Shown one piece after another: positions 26,481 through 61,300 of a stretch of DNA of 64,000 nucleotides. The position numbers and the translations under genes are program-made. The DNA is from Mobula hypostoma. Its lineage: Eukaryota. The notes beneath the pieces are model-generated. The model was given only the letters and a program-made list of their open reading frames with translations, did not search any database and had not been told where the DNA came from. Numbering within the stretch: position 1 is the first letter of the stretch; each line of letters opens with the position of its first letter. The stretch covers positions 106,456,001 through 106,520,000 of the forward strand of contig NC_086097.1 in assembly GCF_963921235.1 (NCBI RefSeq), in the 5' to 3' direction.

Positions 26481-26854
26481 AAACCATTCAACACAGATAT
26501 TCTAAACCACTATTTCAGAAGTACCTGGTGATAGCTGGAGTGAAATGCCCATGGGTAAATAGCCCACAGGTAGGAATCAGATGCACCCTATTTCTATGCC
26601 ATGAAATATCAACCCACTTGAAGTTAGTCCAAAAAATCTGGGAACTTGTCTTGGGTGTTATGGTGAATTTGTGGGTCTTCATTAAACTCATACTTGGCTA
26701 TAAATATAGAGTAATTGTGCTAGGATCAGAAACAAAATGAACATTTGCAGCCTTCGTTTCTGCATCATTCCTTAGGAGTCAAGGACAGTACAGCGGCAAC
26801 TTGTACACTGAAGCATCTCTGACGGGTACAACCTTAATTTTCAATTGTGCGATA

Positions 26855-27022
26855 ACTCACATGAAATGCCGGAGGAGCTCAGCAGGTCAGGCAGCATCTA
26901 CGTAAGGAATGAACAGTCGATGATTTGGGCCAAGAACCTCACCAGGACTGGACAGGAATGGGAAAGATGCTAGATTGAGAAGGTGGAGGTAGGGGAAGGA
27001 GTAAAAACTAGAAGGTGATAGG
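26855..27022 (-). mobile_element. Degraded Penelope pseudo-LTR fragment
   Basis: GGAGGAGCTCAGCAGGTCAGGCAGCATCTA...CAGTCGATGATTTGGGCCAAGAACCTCACCAGGACT matches the 42080-42170 terminus; hammerhead core decayed. Confidence 0.65.
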
Positions 27023-32874: not shown

Positions 32875-33254
32875 TTATTGTCATATTGTTGTTCCTCTCC
32901 ACGCTTAGTGGCACATTGGATGGCAACCTCGCTGTTTCTTGCCTATTTTTTATAAGGCTGAGTTGCTAGCTTGACGCTCAACCCAGCACAGGTGGAGAGT
33001 GTAAACACGAGGAATTCTGCAGATGCTGGAACTTCAAGCAACACACATCAAAGTTCCTTCAGTTAGTCCTGACAAAGGGTCTCGGCCTGAAACATCGACT
33101 GTACCTCCTCCTAGAGATGCTGCCTGGCTTGCTGCGTTCACCAGCAACTTTGATGTGTGTTGTCAGGTGGACAGTGTGCAAGGAGCTGGCTGGATTCGAA
33201 CCTGGGATGCCTCACTTCGAAGTTTGGTGTGGAAGCCACTACACCACATGCCGG
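32875..33254 (-). mobile_element. tRNA-derived SINE interrupted by a Penelope-derived insert
   Basis: Minus strand: A box TGGTGTAGTGG, B box GGTTCGAATCC; 3' end GCGTGGAGAGGAACAACAA. Confidence 0.75.
33003..33163. mobile_element. 161-bp foldback Penelope pseudo-LTR insert with mutated hammerhead
   Basis: Inverted arms CAACACACATCAAAGTT / AACTTTGATGTGTGTTG; TSD CAGGTGGAGAGTGT (32989-33002) / CAGGTGGACAGTGT (33164-33177). Confidence 0.85.
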
Positions 33255-34695: not shown

Positions 34696-34886
34696 AAAAA
34701 GATTTTTTAAAAATCACAAAGAGAAGGGGTCCCAGAACAGATCCCTGAGGCACACCACTGGTCACTGACCTCCATGCAGCATTTGACTTGTCTACAACCA
34801 CTCTTTGCCTTCTGTGAGCAAGCCAATTCTGGATCCACAAAGCAAGGTCCCTTTGGATCCCATGCCTCCTATTCTCTCAATAAGCT

Positions 34887-35469
34887 TTGCATGGGGTACC
34901 TTGTCAAATGCCTTGATAATATCTATATACACTACATCTACTGTTCTACCTTCATCAATACGTTTAGCCACATCCTCAAAAAATTCAATCAGGCTCCTAA
35001 CGCACGACCTGCCTTTCAGAAAGCCATGCTGACTATTCCTAATCATGTTATGCCTCTCTAAATCTTCATAAATCCTGCCTCTCAGGATCTTTTCCATCAA
35101 CTTACCAACCACTGAAGTAAGACTCACTGGTCTATAATTTCCTGGGCTACTCCCTTTCTTGAATAAGGGGTACCTTGTCAAATGCCTTGCATGGGGTACC
35201 TTGTCAAATGCCTTGATAATATCTATATACACTACATCTACTGTTCTACCTTCATCAATATGTTTAGCCACATCCTCAAAAAATTCAATCAGGCTCCTAA
35301 CGCACGACCTGCCTTTCAGAAAGCCATGCTGACTATTCCTAATCATGTTATGCCTCTCTAAATCTTCATAAATCCTGCCTCTCAGGATCTTTTCCATCAA
35401 CTTACCAACCACTGAAGTAAGACTCACTGGTCTATAATTTCCTGGGCTACTCTCTTTCTTGAATAAGGG
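34887..35469. repeat. Tandem duplication with 300-bp period inside the CR1 RT
   Basis: 34887-35169 repeats at 35187-35469 with two visible mismatches; extra GGGGTACCTTGTCAAATGCC copy at the junction. Confidence 0.95.
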
Positions 35470-36603
35470 AACACCATCTGCAGCCCTCCAATCCTCTGGA
35501 ACCTCCCGTCCCCATTGATCATGTAAAGATCATTGCTAGAGGCTCAGCAATCTCCTCCCTCGCCTCCCACAGTAGCCTGGGGTACACCTCGTCCGGTCCC
35601 TGAGACTTATCCAATTTGATCCTTTCCAAAAGCTCCAGCACATCCTCTTTCTTAATATCTATATGCTCAAGCTTTTCAATTCACTGTAAGTCACCTCTAC
35701 AATCGCCAAGATCCTTTTCTGTAGTGAATACTGAAGCAAAATATTCATTAAGTACCTCTGCTATCTCCTTCAGTTCCATACACAGTTTTCCACTGTCACA
35801 CTTGATTGGTCCTATTCTATCATGTCTTATTCTCTTGCTCTTCATATACTTGTAGAATGCCTTGGGGTTTTCTTTAATCCTGCTCGGCAAGGCCTTCTCA
35901 AGGCCCCCCCTGGCTCTCCTAATTTCATTCTTAAACTCCTTCTTATTAGCCTTATAATCTTCTAGATCTCTATCATTACTTAGTTTTTTGAACCTTTCGT
36001 AAGCTTTTCTTTTCTCCTTGACTAGATTTTCAACAGCCTTTATACACCATGGTTCCTGTACTCTACCATCCTTTCCTTGTCTCATTGGAACGTTCCTATA
36101 CAGAATGCCACGCAAATATCCCCTGAACATTTCCCACATTTCAGCTGTACGTTTCCCTGAGAACATCTCTTCTCAACTTATGCTTCCAAGTTCCTGCCTG
36201 ATAGCTTCATATTTCCCCTTACTCCAATTAAATGCTTTCCTAACTTGTGTGTTCCCATCCCTCCCCAATGCTATGGTAAAACAGATAGAATTGTGATCAG
36301 TATCTCCAAAATACTCTCCTGACACTTGACCAGGTACATTTCCCAATACCAGATCAAGTACAACCTCTCCTCTTGTAGGCTCATCTATATATAATGTCAG
36401 GAAACCTTCCTGAACACACCTAACAAACTCCACCCCATCTAAACCCCTCACTCTAGTGAGATGCCAATCAATATTTGGGAAATTAAAATCTCCCACCATG
36501 ACAACCCTGTTATTATTACACCATTCCAGAATCTGTCTCCCTATCTGCTCCTTGATGTCCCTGTTACTATTGGGTGGTCTATAAAAACACCCAGTGGAGT
36601 AAT

Positions 36604-38512
36604 ACCTCGACACTGTTTTATCACCCCTTGTTCAATCCCTTCCGACCTATGTTCGTGACACTTCTCACGCTTAAACTTTTCGATGATTTTAAGTTCCCTG
36701 GCCCCCACCGCTTTATTTTCACCATGGATGTCCAGTCCCTATATACTTCCATCCCCCATCAGGAAGGTCTCAAAGCTCTACGCTTCTTTTTGGATTCCAG
36801 ACCTAATCAGTTCCCCTCTACCACCACTCTGCTCCGTCTAGCAGAATTAGTCCTTACTCTTAATAATTTCTCCTTTTGCTCCTCCCATTTCCTCCAAACT
36901 AAAGGTGTAGCTATGGGCACCCGTATGGGTCCTAGCTATGCCTGCCTTTTTGTTGGGTTTGTGGAACAATCTATGTTCCGTGCCTATTCTGGTATCTGTC
37001 CCCCACTTTTCCTTCGCTACATCGACGACTGCATTGGCGCTGCTTCCTGCACGCATGCAGAACTCGTTGACTTTATTAACTTTGCCTCCAACTTTCACCC
37101 TGCCCTCAAGTTTACCTGGTCCATTTCTGACACCTCCCTCCCCTTTCTAGATCTTTCTGTCTCTGTCTCTGGAGACAGCTTATCCACTGATGTCTACTAT
37201 AAGCCTACTGACTCTCACAGCTATCTGGACTATTCCTCTTCTCACCCTGTCTCTTGCAAAAATGCCATCCCCTTCTCGCAATTCCTCCGTCTCCGCCGCA
37301 TCTGCTCTCAGGATGAGGCTTTTCATTCTAGGACGAGGGAGATGTCTTCATTTTTTAAAGAAAGGGGCTTCCCTTCCTCCACTATCAACTCTGCTCTTAA
37401 ACGCATCTCCCCCATTTCACGTACATCTGCTCTCACTCCATCCTCCCACCACCCCACTAGGAATAGGGTTCCCCTGGTCCTCACCTACCACCCCACCAGC
37501 CTCCGGGTCCAACATATTATTCTCCGTAACTTCCGCCACCTCCAACGGGATCTCACCACTAAGCACATCTTTCCCTCCCCCCCTCTCTCTGCATTCCGCA
37601 GGGATCGCTTCCTACACAACTCCCTTGTCCATTCGTCCCCCCCATCCCTCCCCACTGATCTCCCTCCTGGCACTTATCCATGTAAGCGGAACAAGTGCTA
37701 CACATGCCCTTACACTTCCTCCCTTACCACCATTCAGGGCCCCAAACAGTCCTTCCAGGTGAGGCATCACTTCACCTGTGAGTCGACTGGGGTGATATAC
37801 TGCGTCCGGTGCTCCCGATGTGGCCTTTTATATATTGGTGAGACCCGACGCAGACTGGGAGACCGCTTTGCTGAACATCTACGCTCTGTCCGCCAGAGAA
37901 AGCAGGATCTCCCAGTGGCCACACATTTTAATTCCACATCCCATTCCCATTCTGACATGTCTATCCATGGCCTCCTCTACTGTAAAGATGAAGCCACACT
38001 CAGGTTGGAGGAACACCACCTTATATTCCGTCTGGGTAGCCTCCAACCTGATGGCATGAACATTGACTTCTCTAACTTCCGCTAGGCCCCACCTCCCCCT
38101 CGTACCCCATCTGTTATTCATTTTTATGCACACATTCTTTCTCTCACTCTCCTTTTTCTCCCTCTGTCCCTCTGAATATACCTCTTGCCCATCCTCTGGG
38201 TCACCCCCCCCCGTCTTTCTTCCCGGACTTCCTGTCCCATGATCCTCTCGTATCCCCTTTTGCCTATCACCTGTCCAGCTCTCGGCTCTATCCCTCCCCC
38301 TCCTGTCTTCTCCTATCATTTTGCATCTCCCCCTCCCCCTCCAGCTTTCAAATCCCTTACTCACTCTTCCTTCAGTTAGTCCTGACGAAGGGTCTCGGCC
38401 TGAAACGTCGACTGCGCCTCTTCCTATAGATGCTGCTTGGCCTGCTGCGTTCACCAGCAACTTTGATGTGTGTTGCTTGAATTTCCAGCATCTCTAGAAT
38501 TCCTGTTGTTTG
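36604..38512 (+). mobile_element. Penelope-like element (Poseidon type), 5'-truncated, RT + GIY-YIG endonuclease + pseudo-LTR
   Basis: Open ORF to 38085: MDVQSLYTSIP, GVAMGT.MGP.YA, RYIDD, PFLD, YKPTD, GVIY...C..C...YIGET.RRL..RF.EH; 12-bp TSD CAGTGGAGTAAT at 36592-36603 and 38513-38524. Confidence 0.95.
38378..38413 (+). ncRNA. Minimal type I hammerhead ribozyme motif
   Basis: AGTC-CTGACGA-AGG gtctcgg CCT-GAAA-CG-TC-GACT: stem I, conserved core, stem II, palindromic ACGT stem III, GUC cleavage triplet. Confidence 0.85.
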
Positions 38513-42026: not shown

Positions 42027-43475
42027 ATAAACCAGGAAACTCTGCAGATGCTGGAAATTCAAGCAACATACATCAAAGTTGCTGGTGAATGCAGCAGGCC
42101 AGGCAGCATCTCTAGGAAGAGGTGCAGTCGACGTTTCAGGCCGAGACCCTTCGTCAGGACTAACTGAAGGAAGAGTGAGTAAGAGATTTGCAAGTGGGAG
42201 GGGGAGGGGGAGATTCAAAATGATAGGAGAAGACAGGAGGGGGAGGGATGGAGCCAAGAGCTGGACAGGTGATAGGCAAAAGGGATAGGAGAGGATCATG
42301 GGACAGGAGGTCCGGGGAGAAAGACAAGGCGGGGGGGGGGACCCAGAGGATGGGCAAGGGGTATAATCAGAGGGACAGAGGGAGAAAAAGGAGAGTGAGA
42401 GAAAGAATGTGTGTATAAAAATAAATAACGGATGGGGTATGAGGGGGAGGTGGGGCATTAGCAGAAGTTAGAGAAGTCAATGTTTGTGCCATCAGGTTGG
42501 AGGCTACCCAGACGGAATATAAGGTGTTGTTCCTCCAACCTGAGTGTGGCTTCATCTTTACAGTAGAGGAGGTCGTGGATAGACATGTCAGAATGGGAAT
42601 GGGATGTGGAATTAAAATGTGTGGCCACTGGGAGATCCTGCTTTCTCTGGCGGACAGAGCGTAGGTGTTCAGCAAAGAGGTCTCCCAGTCTGCGTCGGGT
42701 CTCGCCAATATATAAAAGGTCACATCGGGAGCACCGGACGCAGTATATCACCCCAGCCAACTCACAGGTGAAGTGTTGCCTCACCTGGAAGGACTGTTTG
42801 GGGCCCTGAATGGTGGTAAGGGAGGAAGTGTAAGGGCATGTGTAGCACTTGTTCCGCTTACACGGATAAGTGCCAGGAGGGAGATCAGTGGGGAGGGATG
42901 GGGGGGGGACGAATGGACAAGGGAGTCACGTAGGGAGCGATCCCTGCGGAAAGCAGAAAGAGTGGGGGGAGGGAAAGATTTGCTTAGTGGGGGGATCCCG
43001 TTGGAGGTGGCGGAAGTTACGGAGAATAATATGTTGGACCCGGAGGCTGGTGGGGTGGTAGGTGAGGACCAGGGGAACCCTATTCCTAGTGGGGTGGCGG
43101 GAGGCTGGAGTGAGAGCAGATGTGCGTGAAATGGGGGAGATGCGTTTGAGAGCAGAATTGATAGTGGAAGAAGGGAAGCCCCTTTCTTTAAAAAAGGAGG
43201 ACATCACCCCCGTCCTGGAATAAAAAGCCTCATCCTGAGAGCAGATGTAGCGGAGACGGAGGAATTGTGAGAAGAGGATGGCATTTTTGCAAGAGACAGG
43301 GTAAGAAGAGTAGTCCAGATAGCTGTGAGAGTCAGTAGGCTTATAGAGACATCAGTGGATAAGCTGTCTCCAGAGACAGAGACAGAAAGATCTAGAAAGG
43401 GGAGGGCAGCGTCGGAAATGGACCAGGTAAACTTGAGGGCAGGGTGAAAGTTGGAGGCAAAGTTAGTAAAGTCAC
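42027..43475 (-). mobile_element. Penelope-like element, 5'-truncated, same family as 36604-38512
   Basis: ORF 42458-42784 GVIYCVRCSRC.LLYIGETRRRLG (GIY-YIG); reverse complement of about 37066-38510. Confidence 0.93.
42126..42161 (-). ncRNA. Minimal hammerhead ribozyme motif, sense to the host gene
   Basis: Minus strand AGTCCTGACGAAGGGTCTCGGCCTGAAACGTCGACT, identical to 38378-38413. Confidence 0.85.
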
Positions 43476-43629
43476 ACGGTGAATGGTAGGGCATTGAGGA
43501 GTATGGTAGAACAAATGGATCTGGATACAGATTCATAAATTTTTGGAAGTGACATTAGAGGTAGATGGTGTCATAAAGAGTGCTTCAGTACATTTGCCTT
43601 CATAAATCAGAGTACTGAGTACTGGAGAT

Positions 43630-43942
43630 CTTCCACCATTCATGCTGCCCTCACCTACACCTCCTCCACGTCCCAGACATCCGCTCTCAGCCCATCTTCC
43701 CCTTGCTTTAACAGGTACTTTCCTACCTCCCCATGAGCCTCTGAATCTAGCAAATCATTCTCTGCAGCCTCTGCCATCTTCAAAAAGATCCTACCACCAA
43801 ACACATCTTCATCTCCTCCCAACTCTCCACTTTCCGCAGAGATTGCTCCCTCTGTGATTCCCTTGTCCCTTCAGTCCTATCTACAGATCTCCCTCCAGGC
43901 ATTTATCCCTGCAAGCAGAAGAAATGCTACAGCTGCCCACTC
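43630..43942 (+). mobile_element. Older Penelope fragment
   Basis: GATCCTACCACCAAACACATCTT...GATCTCCCTCCAGGCATTTATCCCTGCAAGC resembles 37550-37700. Confidence 0.7.
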
Positions 43943-45254
43943 AGAGTCAGAATCAGAATCAGGTTTAATATAATTGGCATAGGCCATGAGTTGGGAGTGA
44001 GGCTATATCTAGTCTACAGCATTGCACTAGTCTCTGTCCCTCCCAATCTCTCTGCAATTTTCTGGCTTCTGTCTCCTCCCAGAAATGATCCACTGTCAGT
44101 GCCCTTTAATCACTCAGCAAAGTTCCCCAAAAATGCACCACACTTCCATATCTTGTTGTTAAGATATCTGCCAATCTCAATACCTGCCCCCTATTCAAAA
44201 GCAAATGCCCACTCAAATCTCCCCACTTCCTATAATTAAGATCTGAAGCCCAACAGCACATGCTGCAAAGTGCTGATGACCTCCCTTTGTTCTTGAGTTA
44301 CAGAGCTTGATCTAGGAAAAAGAGAACTGGGGTAGCAGTCTTTCCTCAATGGAAGTGTGCAATGCCAAATCAGCGGAAGAAAGGCTTCGAGCCAAGATGA
44401 TGGCAAGTTCCCTACTTCTGCCCTGTTTTTATGTTCTATGGTGGGTACACAAAAATTACGAGGTAATAATTTGACTTCATGATTCTTTGTATTCTGATCT
44501 CCTAAGTGTGCAGATGATGTATTTTCTAGACCCATAACTGCACACAGTAGAGAAGTTAATATTGTGACTGTAGTTTTGTGACTGTTAGCACTGAGTGCTG
44601 TCTAGTTCACAATGGTTAAAAATATATGTTTCTAGTTTATGACTTTTAATACTGGGTATTGTCTGCTCTTGAGTTTTGACTGGTGTCAAGACTGTTATAC
44701 TAGATTTTGTCTGATCTGGGTAATGATCAGAACTGAGTACACTCTGGGACACTGGAGGTAACAGCTGGTTGATTCCACAATTTTTAGCATAGAACATTGT
44801 CTGAATTTGGGGCAGTAACCAAGTGTGCCATCTAAACTTTCAATCTTAAACATCAAAATTATGCTTTATCTAACGCAGGCATATTAGCACTCGGTATTTA
44901 GGGTCTGCATGTTGATAACCTGACCATCCATGACTGGAACAAATAATATATTCCAGGCAAAATGTTGGCTAAGTGTATTCAATTCTCCCATCTCCTCCAT
45001 TCCCTTAGTGCCATGCATTGTCTCAACAATTGATACTGGTCCACACTTTTTTCATTATGGACATGGGAATTGTCAGCAAGACTCGCATTTGTTGTCAGTC
45101 TCTAAATAACCATGGTAAGATGCTGCCATTGCTCCTGTTCTTCTGGTGAAAATACACAAACAGGATCATTGCATGGTAGATTTCAGGATTTAGACTCAGT
45201 GGCAACAAAATAATAGCAAAATATTTCCAGATAAGAATTATGTGCTCAATTCTA

Positions 45255-45747
45255 GTCACCTCACTTTAGGAAGGATATGGAAACCATAGAAAGGGTGCAG
45301 AGGAGATATACAAGGATTTTGCCTGGATTGGGGAGCATGCCTTACAAGAGTAGGTTGAGTTTTTCCTTGGAGTGACGGAGGATGAGAGGTGACCTGACAG
45401 AGGTGTATAAGATGATGAGAGGCATTGATCATGTGGATAGTCAGAGGCTTTCTCCCAGGGCTGAAAAGGCTAACACGAGAGGACACGGTTTTAAGGTGCT
45501 TGAAAGGAGGTACAGAGGAGATGTCAGGGGTAAGTTTTTATGCAGAGAGTGGTGAGTGCGTGGAATGGAATGGTGGTAGAGGCGGAGACGATAGGGTCTT
45601 TTAAGAGACTCCTGGACAGGTACATGAAGCTCAGAAACATAGAGGACTATGGGTAACCCTGGGTAATTTCTAAGGTAAGGATATGTACGGCACAACTTTG
45701 TGGGCCGAAGGGCCTGTATTGTGCTGTAAGTTTGCTATGTTTCCATG
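45255..45747 (+). mobile_element. CR1 3' end
   Basis: Close match to 39680-40197. Confidence 0.88.
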
Positions 45748-46725
45748 TGCAAATTAGAGGGAAACCTGCAGGTATTGCCATCCCCATGCATCTGAAGCCT
45801 TTCTTATGATAGTAATGGTCATCTGAACAATCGCGAGCTGCAATGGAAAACGCCAAGATGAGTGCAATTTGTAGATGCTATATACTTCATCCAGCATTTG
45901 AAGTATTCATTCTTTTCAGTGCACCAGTACTGGAAGCAATGAACATTTAAGATGGTGGATGAAACGCCAGGTAAATGACCAGGGTTGTCTTGGATGGTGT
46001 CAGGCTTCTTGAGTGTTGGTACTCATCCAAGAAACTGGAGGGAACTACATCATATTGCACATTGTAGAGATGTGAAAGGCTTAGTGGACTCAGATCATTG
46101 ACCAATCATCAGATCACCAAGCTGAAACACTAGTTCCATTCCACCCCTAACAGTATTCCCTGCTGTTTACATATTGCAAACTTCTGTGTTTACATATTGA
46201 TATAGTATACTAAGAGATTAGTTTGAAGTCCTTAACTAAATACTTCACTTCAAACACATTATTAAATTTTTGCAATAAAAATATTTATCAGATTCACTAA
46301 ATAATCAAGAATTTTTATCCTACCATCTTAGCCACAGTCAGAAGAATGAACCTGGAATGTTCTTTGTTTCTGTTAATCATCAAGATACTTTAGTAGTTCA
46401 CCTCTGGCCCACTGAAGAGTGGAACTCAGATACTCAGTTAAAAAAAACGATTAAATTAGAAAGATTAAGGAATGTTGTTGGTGAACCTTAAAACCTTAAG
46501 TTTTCTTGTCAATCAATGATCAGTTGTGGAGAAAATCTTGATTGAGAACTTTGCATAAAATATCTACTTTATGATAATTATATACATACACAGTTCCATT
46601 AAATAACAAGTAACTGCTGTACTTTAACATAAATCTGAATAAAATAACAGTTTTTAAAATTTTTAATAAACCCTAGTCAAAAAGAGATGTATTCAACTCT
46701 CTAACCAGAATAAATAGTAACATAC

Positions 46726-46847
46726 CGGAGAACTGCTGTCTGTCACTCCTATACTGCCATCAAAAGGTCCCCAGGTAGTTCCACCAGGTATTTGTTGCCG
46801 GCTGCGAATCTTTCGCACTCCATTTTTCTGGAATATTTCAAGCTCAT
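46726..46847 (-). CDS. ZFPM2: Internal coding exon of a Friend-of-GATA zinc-finger gene (ZFPM/FOG, N-terminal PR-like region); ZFPM2 best match, ZFPM1 possible
   Basis: ctctttttgccccAG|AT GAG CTT...TCT CCG|GTatgt; 122 bp, phase 1 to 0; encodes (D)[40 protein letters not shown], matching recalled human FOG2 [28 protein letters not shown]; flanking exons not found in the window. Confidence 0.88.
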
Positions 46848-48569
46848 CTGGGGCAAAAAGAGTAGATAACTATTAAAGTGGCCATAGGGTGTGCTACACT
46901 GTCATTGACTGGCAACTGTTCTCACAGCTACATTTGGAGTTATCGGATTGTTACTTGTTGCTATTCACTGCAATTTGTATATGTTAACAACACAGAATAT
47001 TGAAAATGCCTTCACATTTGATAGTTTAAAGTACTAACCAAAAACTTCAGAACTCAATCTGACTAGTGACATATCTTACTGAGTCCTTACTGGGCTTATA
47101 ATTCGTCCTTTGGAACTTTACCAAACCTTTGAAAACAAATTGAAACTTCACATAACTGAATCCAAGCAGATTTCATTTGGCTTCACATTTTACAGAAGGT
47201 ATTGACATTCCTTTTTAACATAGATAATCAGGGATAAATTGGGAAGTAGGGTCAAGTGGAACTTGAAGCTCAGCTAAGATTCTGGAGAAGAATCCAGCTA
47301 CGCCAGAAATGAAAATCAAAAATTGAAATGGAAAATATAAAATGTCAGGAATACTAAACTAACTTGTTGCTTCATTTTCAATTAGGCTAAAGGATCTACA
47401 ACAATAAATGTTACTACAGTTCCTTCTTTTAAATGCTGAGACTTCCCAGCAACTCCAGCTGTGACTGTCTAATAATCTTTCAACTCTGTATGTTGGTGAA
47501 GGAGCACTTGGAGCTGAATCTCTTGGTCTCCACATTAGTATGGGGAGTGGAGAGGAGTGGGACATGTGTGCCCTTCTCTTCCTGTGGTCAAGGTCCATTG
47601 AGATTTTTCAGCACACCTGAACTGGCAAGAAGTAAGAAGCCTAATACAGAGAGAGACTCTGGAGCAGAGGGTCCCAACCTCTGCCATGGACCAATACTAT
47701 TGGTCTGTAGACCCCTGGACTACAGGGATCACAAGCACATTTTGGGAAATGGAGGTTGGAAAGTGGAGTTTGGGAATGTTTTAAAATAGTTCTGTAAGGT
47801 TGAATATAATCCCTTCCAATTAAACTCATGAGCAATTTGCAACACAAATTGGATTTTCTTCTATTTAGCATGACCATCACATTCAAAGAAACTTTAATCA
47901 AGATGGAGACTATATGTCACTAAAATTCCATATTATCTAAAAACACTGACACTGATCAGCAATGAGATGACCTTTACCACAGGTAAAATGCAGTACTGGG
48001 ATCTCCCCAGATAGATCAATCACTGAATAAACCTACAAATGATAAACAATATTATCCTGGGTTGTGTTCAGTTGACCTGTCAAACAGTCATAATGACACA
48101 AAAATATGACAGTTTTAATCTCCCAAAAATAGACAACAGGAGTTTTTTGGAAGAGAGGGGCCAAAGTAAACATTGGCCTCTTAGAGAATAAGGTGTGGGA
48201 AACAGTTGTAGAGGACAAGGAAATTACAACTAAATTAAATAGATATTTTTAGAAGTCTTTATAATAGAAAATTCTATTGACACCCTACTAATAAGAATAA
48301 TATCAGGAATGAATTAAATACTATTATGATTATTAAAGACATAGAAAGAGGTAAAGTAGATGGCCTAAAGTCCATAAATTCCCTACCTCAGATGGCTTGC
48401 ATCCTAGGATACTAAAAAAAAGTGCCTTTCAAGAAATTGAATGCATTGTTTGTAATCTTCCAAAAATCAAAGTATTACTAGAGGATTGAAAAAATGGCAA
48501 TATAAAAAGTGAGAGGAACTTTACCAGAAAAAACCTACCATACCATACTAACAGCAGCATACCATGGGT

Positions 48570-49030
48570 AAATTTTAATTTTTTAAATCTTACATCCATC
48601 GCACAACGTGAGGGAGTAAAATTCTTTGTGTTGTGACTCCGTCGCAATGTACAGACATGTGAACTTATAAGTCTAATGGCTTGTAGAAAGAAGCTATCCC
48701 GTAGCCTGTTTGCCAGATGGAAGCAGCTTGTGGTTGGGGTTACTTGTGTCCCTGATGATCTTCCAGGCCTTCTTTATGCACCTACTGCTGTAAATGCCCT
48801 CAATGGAGGGAAGTTCACAGATCTGCTTGCTTGGCTGTTCGTACCACATTCTGCAGTGCCCAGCGATTGGTACAGTACCCATACCAGACCGTGATAAAGC
48901 CAGTCAAGGTGCTCTCAGTGGTGCCCCTGTAGAAGGTCTTAAGGATTTAGGGCTCATACCGAACTTCTTCAGTCAGCTGAGGTGGAAGAGATGCTGTTGT
49001 GCTTTTCTGGCCACACAGTACAGTCCAGGT
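48570..49030 (-). mobile_element. Rex1-type 3' fragment
   Basis: ELPSIEGIYSSRCIKKA.KIIRD.S.P.H.LLPSG (48694-48882). Confidence 0.7.
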
Positions 49031-49037
49031 GAAATCT

Positions 49038-49335
49038 GGCATGGTGTGTAGCGGTTATCGCCATCGCTTTACAGAACCAGCTGTAAGATCAGGGTCTGAT
49101 CCCTGCCGCTGTCTGTAGGGGGTTTTGTACATAACCACGTGGGTTTCTTTCGGCTGCCCCATTTCCTCCAACCTCCCTAAGATGTATGTGTTAGTGAGCT
49201 GTGGACATGCTATGTTGGTGCCAGCAGCGTGGTACAACTTTGTGCCCAGCACAAACTTTGCTGATTCGATTTGATGGAAATGGTGCATTTCACTATATGT
49301 TTTGATAAGCATGTGACAAATAAAGCTAATCTTTA
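49038..49335 (+). mobile_element. HE1-like tRNA SINE
   Basis: tRNA-like head, ACCACGTGGGTTTC core, CATGTGACAAATAAAGCTAATCT tail; sister copy 51898-52196. Confidence 0.7.
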
Positions 49336-49738
49336 ATAAATGGTAATTACAGTCTAACATCTTCTATTTGAATAATGTTAAATTAATGATTAATAAAGTA
49401 ATAATAGGGCATTTGGAAAATGATAATCTAATTAAGCAGTCAGAGCAGCTTCATAAAGTGGAAAATGTGTCTAACAAGCCTACTCGAGTTTTATTAAGTA
49501 AATCTCAATCAGAGTAGATGGACCTTTCTACTTGGATTTCCAGAAGGCATTTGAAAAGGTGCCTCAAAAATGTTGTCACATGATAAAAGCCACTGCTGCT
49601 GGGTGGAATACATTATGATGGATAAAGGATCAACTAACAGGAAGAAAACAGCTAGTAAGTATAAGGGAGTCATTTTCAGGTTGACAACCTGTGCACAAGA
49701 CTACATAAACACCAGAAACTAGCAGCAGGAATAAGCCA

Positions 49739-49889
49739 ATCACAAACAAGAAAAAAACTGAGATGCTGGAAATCTGAGCAACACACACAAAATGCTGGGG
49801 AGAACTCTGCAGGCCAGGCAGCATCTATGTACTCTTTTATCATAGATGTCACCTGGCCTGCTGAGTTCCTCCAGCATTTTGTGTGTGTT
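49739..49889. mobile_element. Penelope-derived palindromic insert
   Basis: About 50-bp inverted arms (49780-49829 / 49841-49889); TSD AGCAGGAATAAGCCA (49724-49738) / AGCAGGAATATGCCA (49890-49904). Confidence 0.8.
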
Positions 49890-50245
49890 AGCAGGAATAT
49901 GCCACCTGGTCGCTCAAGTCTGCCCAGCTATTCAGTATTATTATGGCAGTTCTACCCCTGGCCTCAAATCCTCCTCTATGCCATTTTCCCATAACCTTCA
50001 GTCCCCCAATCTTTCAAAGCTTTGACGAACTCCACTTCAAATATACCCTAATGGTCTAACCTCAGGGATCAATGTGGGAAACAGCCACTGTTTACAATAT
50101 TTCTAGTTACATTTGTATGAAAATGAGCTATAAGAGGTTACAAACACTTTTTCTGTATTTTGGCCCATTTCATATCGTTTAAACCTACCACAATCAATTT
50201 TTCATTACCATAGGTAGGTGGCACTTTAAACCTACATATATTTAC

Positions 50246-51827
50246 TGTGACAGAACGAACCAGCCAACCATGGACCCAGCGACACAGACACTGGAGATGA
50301 ACTCTCGCCATCCATGATTCCCCAGTGCTGAAACCTCCCACCCACCCACCCACCCAAGTCGTCCTTAGTCCTGAAGAGCCTCTTTCGTTGCCCGGAGGCT
50401 CCCGTAGAAAGTGGGGGGGGGTGGTACTGTCATGGACCGGTCCTTGAAGTCTGCATTCTGGTTCACGGTCCGGTCCGTGGACTCAGGACTCCGGGTCTTC
50501 CAGCTGTCCCTCGTTTGATTGAGTTAAGCATAGGCACCTGATTCCCATCTTGGGGCTTGGAATATAAGTAGCCTTGGGGTTGAATGTGGGCTGTTGGTTT
50601 GTCTTGTCAGTCCTCCTTGGAGCAACCTGCTGATGGAAGGCTAGTGAAACCATTTGTGATCTCTAGGCCTGGATGGAGGACCACTGCTTCATGGAGTGTT
50701 GTTGCCACTTGTTGGAGTAATCTTTGCAGTATGATTTGGCTGTTTCCTGGGCCAGCTGAGTGGCTGTCAGCCACTCTGAGCTAAGGTAGGGATCTGGCTG
50801 TTTCTGTAGCCAGCGGAGGATGCTGGCTGTAACTGTGACTCGGAGCAACCCCGGAGCAGAGATGGAACAGTCTGTCATTCTTTGGTGTTTGTCTCTTCTT
50901 GTCCTTGCCTCTGTGGGTAAGTCAGGCTGTTTTGCTGTTGCCCTGCAGGGGGTATCTGTCTTGTCCTTGCCTCTGTGGGGTAAGTCAGGCTGCTCTGCTG
51001 TTGTTCTGTGGGGGGGGGGGGGTTATGTCTTGTCTTGTCCTGTCCTTGCCTCCATGGGGTAAGTCAGGCTGTTTTGCTGTTGCCCTGCAGGGGGTATCTG
51101 TCTTGTCCTTGCCTCTGTGGGGTAAGTCAGGCTGCTCTGCTGTTGTTCTGTGGGGGGGGGGGGTTATGTCTTGTCTTGTCCTGTCCTTGCCTCCATGGGG
51201 TAAGTCAGGCTGTTTTGCTGTTGCCCTGCGGGGCAACATGTCTTGTCTTTGCCTCTGTTGGGTAAGTCTGGCTGTTCTGCTGTTACCCAACAGGTGGACC
51301 TGTCCCACCTTGGTGTGGAGAGGTTGAGTCCTGGCTTGTCTAAGTACAAGTCTGGGCTCTATGTCTATGTTCTGTTCTGTCTCATGTTAGTGTTGTGTTA
51401 AAGATGAGTCCTGGCTTGTTGAAGGATAAATCCCGGCTCTATGTTGATGTTTGGGTCCCAGTCTGTCTCCGAGCTCCAGGATCCCAGGCCTCGAGGATCC
51501 CGCAGCCGGGCTCGAGGATCCCAGGCCTCTAGTCCCCAGCCACGCCCTGTCCTGAAGCCATGTCATGTCCTTGCCAGGTTCTAGGGTCCGAGCCCGAGAC
51601 TAGACGCAGGTTCTGGGTCCTTGTCCAGTCTCGGGCTCGGAGGTGATGCCTTGTCTCCTAGTCCATGGTTTTTACTCGTAGTCCCACTTTCCCTTGCCCA
51701 AGTCTGCGTTCTTGTCCCTGCTTCTTGCCTGTATCCTGTCAAGTCCCTACTCTAGTCAAGTCCTGTTCCTTGTACTTCAGTGTCTGTGTCTTGCATTTGG
51801 GTCCGTTCCCAGCACCCCATTGTGATA
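50246..51827 (+). mobile_element. Gypsy (Sushi/chromovirus-like) remnant: 7-bp LTR stub, gag start, PPT, full 3' LTR (50428-51827)
   Basis: TGTGACA-GAACGAACCAGCCAACC-ATGGACCCAGCG (MDPA); G-rich PPT then TGTCATGG; ends TGTGATA; 5-bp TSD TTTAC. Confidence 0.7.
50895..51290 (+). repeat. Minisatellite in the LTR, six monomers forming a higher-order dimer
   Basis: GTAAGTC at 50917, 50980, 51059, 51122, 51200, 51262 (spacing 63/79/63/78/62). Confidence 0.92.
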
Positions 51828-51897
51828 TTTACAGGCTTGACACATGCTTTCTAATAACTTTATCAATCTATTTTGCCACCTGAAATGCTTGTACATA

Positions 51898-52196
51898 TGG
51901 CTGCATGGTGAAATATTGGTTAACTCCATTGTCGTGTAGCATCTGTGATCACCGATCAGGGTTCGATCACGGCCACTGTCTGAAAGGAATGTATAATTTC
52001 TCCCTGCGACCACACAGGTTTCCTCCTGGTACACTGGCTTCCTCCCACCTTCCAAAGATGTACAGTTAAGTTTAGTGAGTTGTGAGCTATAAGTGTTGTG
52101 GCAATTGCAGGCTCTCACACTGTGTTTGTCATTGATGCAAAAGGCTGCACTTCACTTTGTTTTGATGTACATGTGCCAAATAAAGCTAATCTAATC
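51898..52196 (+). mobile_element. HE1-like tRNA SINE
   Basis: B box GGTTCGATCAC; GGTTTCCTCC...GGCTTCCTCCCAC.TTCCAAAGA core; AATAAAGCTAATCTAATCT tail. Confidence 0.75.
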
Positions 52197-52512
52197 TGTG
52201 ACATGCCAGACAGTTTTAATAATGTATTCAATTTAAAATATATATCACTTCTCCTCATTCATTTTCCCAAAATACAGAATACATGATTTTTTTAATCTGT
52301 TCAGATTAATGACTAAATATTTGAGCAGTTTCTTACACTATCTTTGTTTCTGTTCACTATAACTTCCTACAAACTGCCGCAGGATCAGAAATGGTATGTT
52401 CTCCAAACTGTGTCAATATCACAATGTATCATTACTGCTGTGCTTTCCCATGAAGGCATCTCACTCCACTTGCCAGCAGCATAGGTATCCATGGAATGTA
52501 TTAAAAACTGTA

Positions 52513-53343
52513 CAGGTCCACAATCCCTTATCCAAAATCCTTGGCCAGTTGCATTTTGGAATTCAGAATTTTTCAGATTTCAGACCCCCCCCCCGCCCAT
52601 ACCAGAAAACACGTAAGCTCAAGTCCCTTATTTATCCTGTTTTAGCTGTGGACTTTAAGACCCAGCAGCGCACCAAACCTACGCACATTCTCCCATATAC
52701 TTCAAATCACCTCTAGATACTTATAATACCTAATACAAAGTAAATGCTATGTAAATTGTTATACTGTACTGTTTGGGGAATAATGGCAATAAAAAAATTT
52801 TATTTCCAACAAAAACATTCAATAAAACATAAAAATATACAGCTTCAAATGAACTGAATCAAACACATGGTAAATGACTTATTGGAATAAATGTAGAACG
52901 TCATTGTCACTCTCACTATAAAACCTCAGTAACTTGTCTTTCTGTTTATTTAAATCATATACAGTGGTAGTTCCAACTCTATTTTCTTCAGTAAGACGCC
53001 GCACAGACACACCACGATCAAGCTTCTGCAATAACTCCACTTTCTGCGTTATTGATAATGAAACAGATGCTTCCTTCTCTTTTTCTCATTGTTACCCATA
53101 GGGATATCTGCACCTCTTTTTGACATTTTCACAGTGAAATTAAACACAGTCAACAGTGAACACAAAATATCAGCGAACAGCAAAATGCACGTGTAACCAG
53201 AGCGCTGCGCTACAACTGACGTCTGGCGGCCTCTGCTAGAGCTGCCACGTCACACCTGCGTGACGTCAGCTGTTGGCGAAAAAAAACTCGAGTTTTCAGA
53301 GCTTTCTGGATTTCAGAATTTCGGAAAAAGGAATGTGCACCTG
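52513..53343 (-). mobile_element. Tigger/pogo-type DNA transposon, internally deleted
   Basis: TA|CAGGTCCACAATCCCTTATCCAAAAT ... ATTTCGGAAAAAGGAATGTGCACCTG|TA; minus strand from 53126 MSKRGADIPMGNNEKKRRKHL/SLSITQKVELLQKLDRGVSVRRLTEENRVGTTTVYDLNKQKDKLLRFY (CENP-B/psq-type HTH, one frameshift). Confidence 0.85.
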
Positions 53344-53420
53344 TAACGGGTTGTACAAAATTCGCAATTTAAGATTGTTTGATGTCATTTCCAGGACACA
53401 AATGTAAATTTGCCTGAGAT

Positions 53421-54038
53421 ATCTTTATACTTCATACTTTATTGTGGCCAAACAATTAGTACTAGAATGTACAATCATCACAGCGATATTTGAATCTGCA
53501 TTTCACACTTCCTGGATTACAGATATTAAATAATAAAAATATTAAAAATAGTTAAAATTAGCAAATATTAAAAATTTAAATTATAAATCATAAACAGAAA
53601 ATAGAAAAATGGGAAGTAAGGTAGTGCAAATAAACCAAGAGGCAGGTCCGGATATTTGGAGGGTACGGCCCAGATCCGGGTCAGCATCCATTCTGCAGTC
53701 TTATCACAGTTGGAAAGAAGCTGTTCCCAAATCTGGCCGTACGAGTCTTCAAGCTCCTGAACCTTCTCCCGGAGGGAAGAGGGATGAAAAGTCTGCTGGC
53801 TGGGTGGGTTGTGTCCTTGACTATCTCGGCAGCACTTCTCCGACAGCGTGCAGAGTAAAGTGAGTCCACGGACAGAAGATTGGTTTGTGTGATATGCTGC
53901 GCCGTGTTCACGATCGTCTGCAGATTCTTTTGGACTTGGACAGGACAACTTCCATACCAGGTTGTGATGCACCCCAGAAGAATGCTTTCTATGGTGCATC
54001 TATAAAAATTAGTGAGGGTTTTAGGGGACAGGCCAAAT
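53421..54038 (-). mobile_element. Rex1-derived 3' fragment, sister of 5544-6146
   Basis: Collinear over the whole length with the same ends. Confidence 0.88.
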
Positions 54039-55125
54039 TTTTTGGAATTTTTGAAGAAATAACAGGCAGGAGAGACAAAGGAGAATCAGTGGACGTTGTG
54101 TACTTGGATTTTCGGAAATAATTTGACAAGGTGCTGCACATGAGGCTGCTTAACAAGACAAGAGCCCATGCTATTACGGGAAAGATACCAGCATAGATAC
54201 AGCATTGGCTGATTGGCAGGAAGTAAAGAGTGGGAATAATGGGAGCCCTTTCTGATTGGCTGCTGGTTTCTAGTGGTGTTCCACAGAAGTCAGTGTTGTA
54301 ACCACTTCTTTTTATGTTGCATGTCAATGATTTGGATGATAGAATTGATGGCTTTGTAGCCAAGTTTGCGGTTGATATGAAGATAGGTGGAGGCTCAGGT
54401 AGTCTATGGAAGCAGGGAGGCTGCAGAAGGATTTGGATAGGTTAGGAGAATGGACAAAGAAGTGGCAAGTAGAATAAAGTGTCAGTATGTGGACGGTCCT
54501 GCACTTTTGTAGGTGAAATAAAAGCATTGACTATTTTCTAAATGGGGAGAAAGTTCAAAAATAAGGAGCAAAGAGACTTGGGAGTCCTTGTGCAGGATTC
54601 CCTAAAGGTTAACTTGGGTTGAGTCAGAGGTGACGAAGGCAAATGCAATGTTAGCATTCATTTCAAGAGGACTAGAATATAAAAGCAAGGACATAATGTT
54701 GAGGCTTTATAAAGCACTGGTGAAGCCTCACTTGTAGTAATGTGAGCAGTTTTAGGCCTCTTACCTAAGAAAGGATGTGCTAACATTGGAGAGTGTTCAG
54801 AGGAGGTACACAAGAATGATTCTGGGAATGAAAGGCATATCGTATGAGGAGTGATTGATGGCTCTGAGCCTTTCCTCGCTAGAATTTGGAAGTGTTGAAA
54901 GGCCTAGACAGAGTGGATGTGAAGAGGATGTTTCCTATAGTGGGGGAGTCTAGGACACAGAGACCAGAGGGCACAGCCTCAAAATAGAGGGGCATCCATT
55001 TAGAACTGAGATGAGGAGAAACTTCTCATCTCACCCAGAGGGTGGTGAATCTGTGGAATTTATTGCCATGTACAGCTGTGGAGGTCAAGTCATTGAAGAT
55101 ACTTAAAGCATAGGTTGATAGGTTT
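54039..55125 (+). mobile_element. Degraded CR1 (RT to 3' region)
   Basis: FEEITGR.DKGESVDVVYLDF; stops and frameshifts throughout. Confidence 0.85.
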
Positions 55126-55127
55126 TG

Positions 55128-55530
55128 TAAACACAAAATACTCTGCAGATGCTGGGGTCAAAGCAACACTCACAACACGGTGGAGGAACTCAGCAGGTCG
55201 AGCAGCATCCGTGGAAACGATCAGTCAACGTTTCGGGCAGGAACCCTTCGTCAGGACCGAAGAGGGAAGGGGCAGAGGCCCTAGAAAGAAGATAGGGGGG
55301 AGGGTGGGAAGGAGAAGGCTGGTAGGTTCCAGGTGAAAAACCAGTAAGGAGAAAGATAAAGGGGTGGGGGAGGGGAAGCAGGGAGGTGATAGGCCGGAAA
55401 GGTGAAGAAGGAATAGGGGAAAGCACAATGGGTAGTAGAAGGAAGCGGAACCATGAGGGAGGTGATAGGCATAGTGAAACTGGGATGGAGGAAGGGAGGG
55501 GAGGGAATTACTGGAAGTTGGAGAATTCAA
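55128..55530 (-). mobile_element. Penelope-derived terminal fragment (second subfamily)
   Basis: GAATTCTCCAACTTCCAGTAA ORF end, pyrimidine-rich UTR, hammerhead, CCAGCATCTGCAGAGTATTTTGTGTTT terminus. Confidence 0.8.
55221..55260 (-). ncRNA. Minimal hammerhead ribozyme motif variant, sense to the host gene
   Basis: Minus strand TCGGTC-CTGACGA-A-GGG ttcctg CCC-GAAA-CG-TT-GACTGA; 6-bp stem I with one G-U; GUU triplet. Confidence 0.7.
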
Positions 55531-55709
55531 CTAACTTTACATTGTATGAAGTGGTGAAAATTGTTCTCTCCCTAGCACTATCAGAAAGCAGGTGTCTTGG
55601 AATGGATAAATGACCATCTTAATCTCTAAGCATGAAGCAAATTGATATCCACAATAGAAAAAGTCACCACCAGACTCTAAATATCAGCACATCCTCAACC
55701 ATGTAAGTA

Positions 55710-58310: not shown

Positions 58311-61300
58311 TGTAACATGCTGTAGGGTTTCACTGCTGTGTAACATGCTATAAGGTTTTACTGATAATGTAATGGTTTCTCTGTTGCAGTAATGTTTGGG
58401 TTATGACTAGAGATAACGGGGTTTGAAATGCTGTTGTTCGTTCTTATGAGTCTGGAAGAGAGATTTTCGTGGTCTTTTGCCAGGGAGAGATGAGGAGAGG
58501 AGATGCCAATGGAGAGAGTTGGTAGACTGCCGGATGGGGTGGACTTGCAGCGAGGGTCCAAAGAGCAGTGTTACGTACCTCATGGGTATCTTGTGACTAT
58601 CTTATGACCATGATGTAATTGAGTATCTTGTGAGCCTGATGTAATGGTCTTGTGATGGTGGGGTGATGTAATTTTCCCACCAGTGTGAGGTCATGTGATG
58701 ACATGTTCTCAACAGGTATATAACGGGAAACCCCTGTTAGGCAGTTTCAGTTTAGTTCGTCAGTTAATTTGACAGTTACTCAGTTATGCTGTGTATTCGT
58801 CTCATAATGCAGTTTCGTTTTAAAGTGGAGTTTTACTTTCTATTGTAAGTCTAATATTGGAGAGTGAAGACCTTATTAAAGTACGGGAACCTGAAGGATC
58901 GAGCAAAGTTGGTGTCCTTTGGCCGTTTAATACAGGATCGACCTTATGGAATCTTCTTTCAGAAATATTGACCTGCATCTAAGATAACTCCTGCAAGATC
59001 AGGGAAGTTCGTGCAGTGGTCACTCGCCAGAAAAAGGTTAGTTCCTTTAAGCCGTTTTATTTCCTTCATCGTGAGTCCTTTGGACAGAATCAGCAGTAAT
59101 GTCACGTCTCCAAAGAAATCCATTTCCAGAGAAGTCTCTCCTATTTGACTGTGTAAATCACTTGGACCTTCGAATTCACCATTTTAAGACTGTGTTCGAA
59201 TCTACCACTTTACGAACTGTTTTTGAATGTACCATTTTAAGAACTGTTCCAGAGTTGCTGTATAGCAGTTAACTTCCGGTTAAGTTGGTCGTTTGAATAC
59301 TTTTTGCTGTTGTTGAGCAGAGTTTAATAAATGTTTGTTTATAAAACTTAACTCAATTATATATTCATTGTTGCTGGTCATGTGACAGCAGCGACGATTG
59401 GAAGAGGTCAATGGTGGACGATCGGCTTATCAGTGAGCCCCAAAATTGCACAACAGACTGTTTAATAAGATTGGGCCCTTTTTTTAAAATCTTTTTTTCA
59501 TTTCTTTACTAACCATATAGTCAAAGTAAGAATTATAAAGCTTAATTGTTTAATCGTATATTGTGTACTGTTTGTTATTTCGGGGTACTGATTTGTAACA
59601 GGGGACACATCGCGCAGCATCCACCCACTTGAGATTTCTTAAGTTTGGCCAGGCTGGGGGCTATCACCCCCTATATAAAGCCACTAGCTGAAGCAAGAGT
59701 TACAATCGTGGGGGCTATGTTCAGGATTGATTCCGTTGGATGCTGTGTGATTACTCTGAGCAATGAACTAGTGGGGCAGATATTTGTACCCCAAATGAAG
59801 TCGGAGATTGAAGAATACTGCAAGTCATGCATTCGATGCATACGGCGGAAGACACTGCCTACGTGGGCAGCTCCCTTGTCCCACTGGCAGAGCGCGGGGC
59901 CTCTGGACCTGGTGTGTATGGATTTCCTGTCAATAGAACCCAATTTCAGCAACACGGTGAATGTCTTGGTCATCATGGACCACTACACCAGATATGCTCA
60001 GGCTTTTCCTACCAAGGACCAGAGGATGTCTACAGTGGCAAAGGTGTTATGGGAGAAGTATTTCATCTATTATGACCTTACCAGGTGAATACATAGTGAT
60101 CAGAGACAGGGTTTCGAGAGCAGACTCATCCATGAGTTACTGGGCATGCTTGGAGTTGAGAGGACGTGGTCCTCGACTTATCACCCGGAGGGTGATCCCC
60201 AGTCAGAGAGGTTTAATCGGACCTTGCTAGACATGCTCGGGACCCTGGAGATCAACAACAAGAGCAGGTGGAGTCAACATATTGGGCATCTGGTTCACAG
60301 TTGTAATTGTACACAAAATGAAACTACTGGGTACTCGTCGTATTATCTGATGTTTGGGCGCGAGGCAAGGTTGCCCATTGACCTTTGTTTTGGGACCGAC
60401 AAGGGTGACTTACCACCAAAGACTTATCTGAAGTATGTGTCTGATATGAGAAGAGAGTTGAAAAGGGCTTATGAATTAGCTGGGGTCATGGCTGCCCAGC
60501 AGAATCAAGGGAATGAGAGAAGGTATGATCAAAAGGTGACGTTCTCCCAACTCCTGCCGGGAGACAGTCCTCATAAGGAATTTGGGGTTACCTGGAAAGC
60601 ATAAGTTGGCTGACCGCTGGGCGGCTAAACCCTATGTGGTGGAGAGTCAGATGCCAAACCTACCAGTTTTCTGGATGAAACCAGAGGATGAGAATGGGCC
60701 TGTCAAGATTCTCCATTGGAACCACCTGTTGCCCCTGGGACAAGAGGTGCAGGTAGACCCAGAACCCGACTTGAAGCCTACACCTAGTAAGAGGACTCTT
60801 CGGAAACACGGGGTGTCTACTGGGCCCCCAACAGGCGAGGTTAGGCTGGCCCCCACCCCTGAAAGGGATACTGATTTGGAGGATGAGGACCTGGATGTGT
60901 GGTATATGCTGCTTTTCGCTAACTCCCCATTGATTGAGGAAGAGACTCCCGGCCCTTGTCCCATTGAGACAGGTGAAGTTGGGGGGGGGGCGGCGGGCTG
61001 GCTATCTGTGGGCAGCCTGGTTTGCAGCGGGACTCTGCAGGGGAGGAAGCGGGGTTTGGTCACGGAACAGAGGGCTCCGAGTTGCAGGTGGGCACGAGCG
61101 ATAGATCGGGGGAGGCCTTGCCAGGTAGATCGGAAGTATTCCCAGTAGTGTCGGAACCTGAAGAGTTAGATGATGGGGTGCGGAGGTCTCAAAGAATTAG
61201 GAGACCACCAGATGGTTGGCCTACGTAGCACCAGGGGAACAGAGTGTGACCCCTACTGTGCCGGAGAGCTATGTCACTGCCTTTTACACCTGGATTGGGC

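Follow-up and report, generated by a model that had tools for sequence, protein, structure and literature searches.

Two hammerhead motifs flanking exon 4 of ZFPM2a in Mobula hypostoma are most probably the ends of independent Penelope-like insertions

Minimal hammerhead ribozymes (min-HHRs) at the ends of Penelope-like elements (PLEs) have been studied in a few animals. The single Schistosoma motif is described as not cleaving, its dimers and trimers as having low activity only, and the G10.1–C11.1 pair as highly conserved (PMC4209133). In the anole, the Penelope hammerhead is reported to cut only with the protein of the element and to be dispensable for insertion in vitro, and in that account no RNA-seq read ends at the hammerhead site (PMC11167929). 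Among nine Xenopus retrozyme dimers that were tested, one was cleaved (10.64898/2026.07.22.740005). Here we analyse a window of 64,000 nt from the ray Mobula hypostoma (NC_086097.1, 106,456,001–106,520,000), in which two hammerhead motifs lie on either side of coding exon 4 of the gene ZFPM2a (FOG2); positions below are those of the window unless prefixed C1. Our analysis makes it very probable that the motifs are the 3′ ends of two independent 5′-truncated Penelope-like insertions, which are likely to flank the exon by chance and, in the ZFPM2 pre-mRNA, are predicted to have no activity. Excision of the exon by the motifs is unlikely.

A scan recovered the full anatomy, CUGACGA-A-stem II-GAAA-CG-UH, on the minus strand in both motifs, which we call the 55-kb and the 42-kb motif (Table 1). 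Helix I has 6 bp in the 55-kb motif and 5 bp in the 42-kb motif (four Watson–Crick pairs and one U–G). Helix II has 4 bp in each, with G10.1–C11.1 as its closing pair in the former and a G10.1–U11.1 wobble in the latter. The triplets are GUU, with nucleotide H17 at 55227, and GUC, with H17 at 42130, respectively. The ACGU palindrome (15.2–16.2) occurs in both, without a stable helix III, and helices I and II of both form in their minimum free energy folds. The scan thereby confirmed what a preliminary description of this DNA had reported, namely two intact gene-sense cores with ACGU bracketing an exon, and on the plus strand it added a third intact core, which is absent from that description. 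An unpaired A stands between positions 9 and 10.1 in both motifs, and this position is an A in 97% of 152 distinct copies, taken from the window and the fetched loci L001–L227 and selected with at most three core mismatches. Among these copies the 10.1–11.1 pair is G–U in 84 and G–C in 60, so that G–U is the commonest form. It is probably a fixed CpG-type change, and a pair that is highly conserved elsewhere may have been relaxed in the subfamily that spread most successfully. Changes in the helices of the 152 copies are one-sided (G–C/G–U, C–G/U–G) or of the CpG-decay type, with no double compensatory type among the commonest pairs. An Rfam scan of the whole window returned four weak matches (E up to 5), none of them to a hammerhead. 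These sub-threshold matches were rejected as chance or tail hairpins, and the hammerheads were presumably missed because Rfam models expect a helix III.

Both motifs are embedded in recognizable element ends. The 42-kb element encodes a reverse transcriptase (RT) thumb, a linker and a GIY-YIG end spread over two frames, followed by a 3′ untranslated region (UTR), the hammerhead and a tail. The 55-kb element retains the last codons of its open reading frame (ORF; VEFSNFQ-stop), then 3′ UTR, hammerhead, terminal hairpin and tail. Its nearest relatives among the fetched loci, L216 and L220, are 88% identical to it over about 390 nt, and the ORF directly upstream in these two loci is 79% identical to the protein of a third, antisense element in the window, the 38-kb copy. 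In the 42-kb and 38-kb copies the hammerhead lies about 300 nt past the GIY-YIG stop, and L216 and L220 show the same layout for the 55-kb type. The terminal stem of the element follows the motif at 28 of 30 loci in the genome, and an optional tail is present at 12 of the 30; both window motifs carry this tail, of 30–40 nt, and the element flanks of the motifs are 88–95% identical to other copies. Since the 55-kb and 42-kb motifs are only 73% alike over 122 nt and the UTRs cannot be aligned, the two elements are independent insertions from different subfamilies. A pattern built on the 55-kb motif had 3,725 matches in the genome, related subfamilies being caught too.

The 38-kb copy is 5′-truncated as well, and its frame (36556–38085, plus strand) runs uninterrupted for 509 aa with RT and C-terminal GIY-YIG in one frame. 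Its matches to RVT_1 (E 4.5e-5) and GIY-YIG (E 3.7e-4) both fall just under the curated Pfam cut-offs, and it has a YIDD motif, a CX4CxxC linker (residues 376–384) and two cysteines (CxxC) between GIY and YIG (residues 412–429). A frame of this length suggests that the family was recently active, and the linker and cysteine features point to Neptune/Nematis-type PLEs as the carriers. The preliminary description had recognized minimal hammerheads of Penelope type, an assignment borne out by the core anatomy and by the RT/GIY-YIG carriers. The 38-kb copy (37348–38505) and the 42-kb element (42033–43246) are 94% identical over 1.17 kb and lie inverted across a 3.5-kb gap in intron 4, where they are predicted to form a pre-mRNA duplex of about 1.16 kb, a likely target of adenosine-to-inosine editing. 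Back-to-back inverted copies with cores 30–90 nt apart are also common elsewhere (loci L004/L005, L026/L027 and L002; C1:106,551,970–106,552,003), and 14 opposite-strand neighbours within 3 kb were found among the first 100 copies listed. Such inverted neighbour pairs are a footprint of the insertion mechanism.

The bracketed exon is 122 nt long with AG/GT ends and matches Pfam PF21182 (FOG1-like PR domain, E 3e-8). Its peptide matched 15 proteins (from 26 candidates) at 88–100% identity in all 15; 13 of them are named ZFPM2a, and batoids gave the best matches. As the peptide is that of ZFPM2a on the minus strand, both motifs are gene-sense, and the earlier assignment of the exon to a ZFPM gene can be narrowed to exon 4 of ZFPM2a by protein identity, Pfam match and mapping. 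A ZFPM2a protein from a ray places exons 2–8 at C1:106.10–106.86 Mb on the minus strand, and a first-codon pattern places exon 1 at C1 107.11 Mb, giving an intron 1 of 255 kb. Exon 4 is flanked by a 200-kb upstream and a 65-kb downstream intron. Three runs from other organisms, presumably of RNA, gave contigs that match exon 4 alone and continue into neighbouring exons; their loose ends, when translated, read as the neighbouring exons of the ray ZFPM2a protein. These contigs confirm exon 4 and say nothing on cleavage. The intron flanks of exon 4 (46300–47300) are about 90–95% alike in a run of DNA from a related organism, and the unique intron sequence there can be aligned.

Table 1. Positions in the window of the hammerhead motifs, the elements and stubs related to them, and the bracketed exon
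Feature	Position	Strand	Remark
Minimal type-I hammerhead, 55-kb motif	55221–55260	-	Upstream intron (intron 3); predicted cut after 55227
Minimal type-I hammerhead, 42-kb motif	42125–42162	-	Downstream intron (intron 4); predicted cut after 42130
5′-truncated Penelope-like element, ~0.4 kb, minor subfamily	55124–55531	-	Ends in 55-kb motif
5′-truncated Penelope-like element, ~1.45 kb, dominant young subfamily	42028–43474	-	Ends in 42-kb motif
Antisense sister element, 38-kb copy, intact core 38382–38405	36556–38505	+	509-aa frame
ZFPM2a (FOG2) coding exon 4	46726–46847	-	Residues 95–136 of ray protein; start of PR domain
Antisense 3′-end stub near 33069, broken core (G8 and palindrome changed)	33054–33162	+	BLAST
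Old decayed sense 3′-end stub, degenerate copy near 26949	26854–27001	-	BLAST
Inverted pair of tail-only stubs, no core; source of spurious MIR533-like hairpin match	49743–49889		BLAST, Rfam

The abundance of the motif bears directly on its placement. A 31-letter pattern fitting both motifs has 76,559 exact matches in the 3.48-Gb genome, 38,223 of them forward and 38,336 reverse, which is a density of one per 91 kb on each strand. The reversed pattern, used as a control, has none, so that the motifs are not chance sequence. With this many copies of a known transposon type, the bracketing of an exon by two of them is likely a matter of chance. The span of exons 2–8 of ZFPM2 holds 18 sense copies, and given the intron sizes the probability of a sense copy in both introns flanking exon 4 is P=0.45; exons 3 and 5 are likewise bracketed by sense copies. 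For a single exon, the chance of a bracket of 13.1 kb or less is 0.0095 with the copy density of the genome and 0.039 with that of ZFPM2. Such a bracket is therefore uncommon per exon yet frequent genome-wide, and the window was picked for it. Fourteen same-strand pairs no more than 13.1 kb apart occur among the first 100 copies listed. The placement of the motifs around exon 4 is thus not beyond chance, in keeping with the caution, already voiced in the preliminary description, that such motifs are probably abundant and their position plausibly accidental. Two pairs of intact sense motifs lie within single ZFPM2 introns, at C1:106,148,687/106,149,230 (543 nt apart) and 106,660,300/106,660,774 (474 nt apart), and are better candidates for a cis-acting dimer than the pair around exon 4.

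Could the pair nevertheless cut in cis? The preliminary description had proposed that the two motifs pair within the pre-mRNA and excise or circularise the piece between them, and the pairing itself can be drawn: both motifs are sense and core-intact, and exchanging their strands gives two cross helices I, with 5 and 7 pairs, and an ACGU helix of 4 bp. Judged from the sequence geometry, a double cut would leave a 5′-OH and a cyclic phosphate on one piece of 13,097 nt carrying exon 4, which would be skipped; an RtcB-type enzyme could ligate such ends into a circle. The folding energies tell against this. The monomers are predicted to form rods of −15.6 and −12.2 kcal/mol (55216–55264 and 42119–42167, minus strand) in which the core bases GACG are paired to the CGUH segment, a modelled self-inhibited state that could be an off state to be opened by a protein or a partner. 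At −19.3 against −27.8 kcal/mol for two monomers, the drawn double hammerhead is 8.5 kcal/mol less stable, the cofold minimum (−30.9 kcal/mol) is another core-sequestered form, and closing a 13-kb loop would cost about 14 kcal/mol further by extrapolation. Nearest-neighbour energies omit the tertiary core, ions and proteins and are indicative only. A cut at 55227 would moreover need the half of the dimer in which stem II, supplied by the 42-kb copy, is closed by G–U and the triplet is GUU, and both of these are expected to be weaker. Timing and neighbourhood point the same way. At a transcription rate of 3 kb/min (PMC5126111), the 55-kb copy would be alone for about 4 min, and free to fold unpartnered, before the 42-kb copy emerges, and about 1.2 min after the latter the inverted 38-kb sister would follow and capture it in a 1.16-kb duplex that spans the 42-kb motif (−1571 kcal/mol over 800 nt). 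Given also that the two elements are independent insertions of different subfamilies and that closer sense partners exist, the drawable pairing is what is left of the earlier proposal, and we consider double cutting with release of exon 4 extremely improbable. Back-splicing across exon 4 through inverted repeats was considered and rejected, as the pairs in the window are only old ones, 65–81% alike, and would give weak support at most. A more general form of the idea is that sense copies, by themselves or with whatever partner lies close by or acts in trans, are occasionally cut as collateral in cells with Penelope protein, such as those of the germ line. Cutting would be at a low level and mostly tolerated, the sites lying deep in introns, and the pair around exon 4 would be nothing special. 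This would agree with the protein-assisted cleavage described for the anole element (PMC11167929), with the tens of thousands of young copies in the genome and the 509-aa open frame in the window, and with the sense pairs 474 and 543 nt apart in ZFPM2; splicing is also possible without a continuous transcript (exon tethering, cited in PMC5126111). On the other hand, the anole RNA-seq reads described neither begin nor end at the site, and truncated 3′ ends may lack the RNA bound by the protein, which in the anole is the first 172 nt of the ORF (PMC11167929). A depletion of intact sense copies, as expected from harmful cutting, is also absent once the genes surveyed below are pooled (33 sense to 28 antisense), and such collateral cutting seems to us very improbable.

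Strand counts within ZFPM2 speak against the chance reading. Counting covered exons 2–8 of ZFPM2 (C1:106,098,970–106,858,429), in 70 fetched 10-kb stretches and the window. Several results weigh against mere chance, together with the limits of the folding energies and the fact that so tight a bracket is uncommon per exon (1–4%). Within ZFPM2 there are 18 sense and 5 antisense strict motifs (p=0.011), and 21 to 7 intact cores with ACGU (p=0.013), against 22:28 for broken cores (intact versus broken, Fisher p=0.01). The skew persists without the window (16:4) and when counted by insertion events (15:4, one mixed event omitted), and it has the same direction in three of the four long introns (5:1, 7:2 and 5:1; the fourth 1:1). 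The remaining BLAST classes give 10:13 for tail-only stubs and 46:39 for clusters of CR1-type long interspersed nuclear elements (LINEs). The skew was found post hoc, and a replication plan was therefore set down before eight other long genes were sampled, four per strand, in 100 stretches of 10 kb (1 Mb), all 100 of which were counted; these genes were located solely by same-strand clusters of LamG or CUB exons, so that their orientation is inferred and nested genes are possible. In this set a general sense bias was absent, with 11:11 strict motifs, 12:21 intact and 34:31 broken cores, and a general sense ratio of 3:1 was rejected (p=0.012 for strict, 3e-6 for intact motifs). Thus the strand bias that the preliminary description had named as a check on activity came out positive inside ZFPM2 and null in the eight other genes. 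ZFPM2 and the replication set differ (p=0.004), and the pooled strict count of 29:16 (p=0.07) must again be held against chance, the pooled intact count being 33:28 (p=0.61). The paralogue ZFPM1, with no strict motif in 100 kb, is uninformative. The sense excess of ZFPM2 could be real and specific to the gene, young copies inserting or persisting in sense in some genes, such as those transcribed in the germ line, with the bracket as a by-product. Besides the counts and their disagreement with the other genes, this is favoured by the contig itself: regional strand clustering was rejected as a cause, as the first 3.7 Mb show no block-to-block overdispersion (p=0.46) and a most lopsided run of 15 of 23, from which the 18 of 23 in ZFPM2 stands out. 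Yet the excess is post hoc and confined to one gene, the replication set leans the opposite way, and the LINE clusters stand at 46:39, and young copies as a whole (28:18, p=0.18) and young broken copies (7:11) do not behave as an insertion bias predicts, so that a gene-specific cause appears highly improbable. It is a similarly slim chance that the sense copies, including the pair around exon 4, were retained or placed because the element protein chaperones cutting of nascent ZFPM2 RNA, with exon 4 released on a 13,097-nt RNA. If that were true, the ribozyme-driven loss of an exon from a host gene would be switched by a transposon protein. The skew in ZFPM2, though unexplained, is probably a fluctuation.

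We thus return to two independent transposon ends, inactive in the host transcript, as the best explanation. The hammerhead would work, if at all, in the tandem transcript of the element itself, as a dimer helped by the element protein, as one may extrapolate from PMC4209133 and PMC11167929. In a host transcript each copy would fold at once into its local rod with GACG paired to the CGUH segment, the inverted sister would lock the 42-kb copy in duplex about 1.2 min after it emerged, and exon 4 would then be spliced normally. The finding is one of ordinary transposon ends, two ends of a very abundant element in long introns. Two useful by-products come with it. At least 76,000 motifs with intact cores were counted, many more than have been published for vertebrates (by another method), and the strand bias of intronic copies was given a first, small test, in which no general skew appeared and hence no sign of sense copies harming host transcripts. 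Should protein-assisted cutting of intronic copies nonetheless be true, a cleavage site under transposon control would sit in tens of thousands of host introns, and what Penelope hammerheads do would become testable genome-wide.

The window holds other repeats as well. Broken integrase frames of a long terminal repeat (LTR) retroelement lie at 59633–61148 (plus strand; matches to Integrase_H2C2 and rve), and large LINE remnants, which we take to be CR1-like, at 11453–13940 (plus), 25171–26509 (minus) and 34792–36631 (minus), the first with endonuclease and RT Pfam matches. A short tandem repeat region at 50839–51386 has repetitive frames on both strands.

In comparison with known systems, the ray motifs resemble the min-HHRs of PLEs as described in PMC4209133 in their core boxes, unpaired A, short helix I, palindromic 15.2–16.2 and lack of a real helix III, and also in lying at the end of the element (in pseudo-LTRs, pLTRs), mostly as single dispersed copies, with some close opposite-strand pairs. 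They differ from the Schistosoma motifs in having a helix II of 4 bp with a 4-nt loop instead of 7–8 bp, and from the published min-HHRs in that their commonest form has G10.1–U11.1 (PMC4209133). For coelacanth and Xenopus the same paper gives about 4,000 and 9,000 copies, obtained with a different search method, where the ray has 76,559 exact ones. Our literature search turned up no report of Penelope hammerheads in sharks or rays, which does not establish their absence from print, and supplement file 2 of PMC4209133 contains no shark or skate term. The carriers share with the endonuclease-containing (EN+) PLEs of the Neptune/Nematis type, as described in PMC8557442, the RT and C-terminal GIY-YIG in one frame, the cysteines between GIY and YIG, a CX2-5CxxC linker, the optional 30–40-nt tail and inverted truncated neighbours; unlike those, all copies in the window are 5′-truncated.

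A likeness to the domesticated intronic hammerheads of amniotes (RECK, CTCL, DTNB) lies in the type-I form and the sense placement in an intron of a host gene. Those hammerheads are described as conserved across amniotes and canonical, with tertiary contacts (PMC6155905), whereas the ray motifs are minimal and sit within young transposon DNA in tens of thousands of near-identical copies; a RECK-type hammerhead would be expected at low copy number and away from young transposon sequence, which is not so for motifs with 76,559 copies. With non-LTR retrozymes, which are related to PLE ends, the locus shares the arrangement of an RNA bounded by hammerheads on both sides and thus open to excision and circularisation (10.64898/2026.07.22.740005, PMC7229834), but retrozymes are short tandem units (10.64898/2026.07.22.740005), and the ray motifs stand 13,097 nt apart, belong to different subfamilies and have host sequence between them. 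The PAc (Poseidon) element of Anolis carolinensis likewise has its hammerhead near the element end, followed by an optional tail, although it belongs to another clade, without the zinc linker of the ray elements (PMC11167929). PAc is the best experimental model for the switching-on of such motifs, and the ray motif may likewise need its protein.

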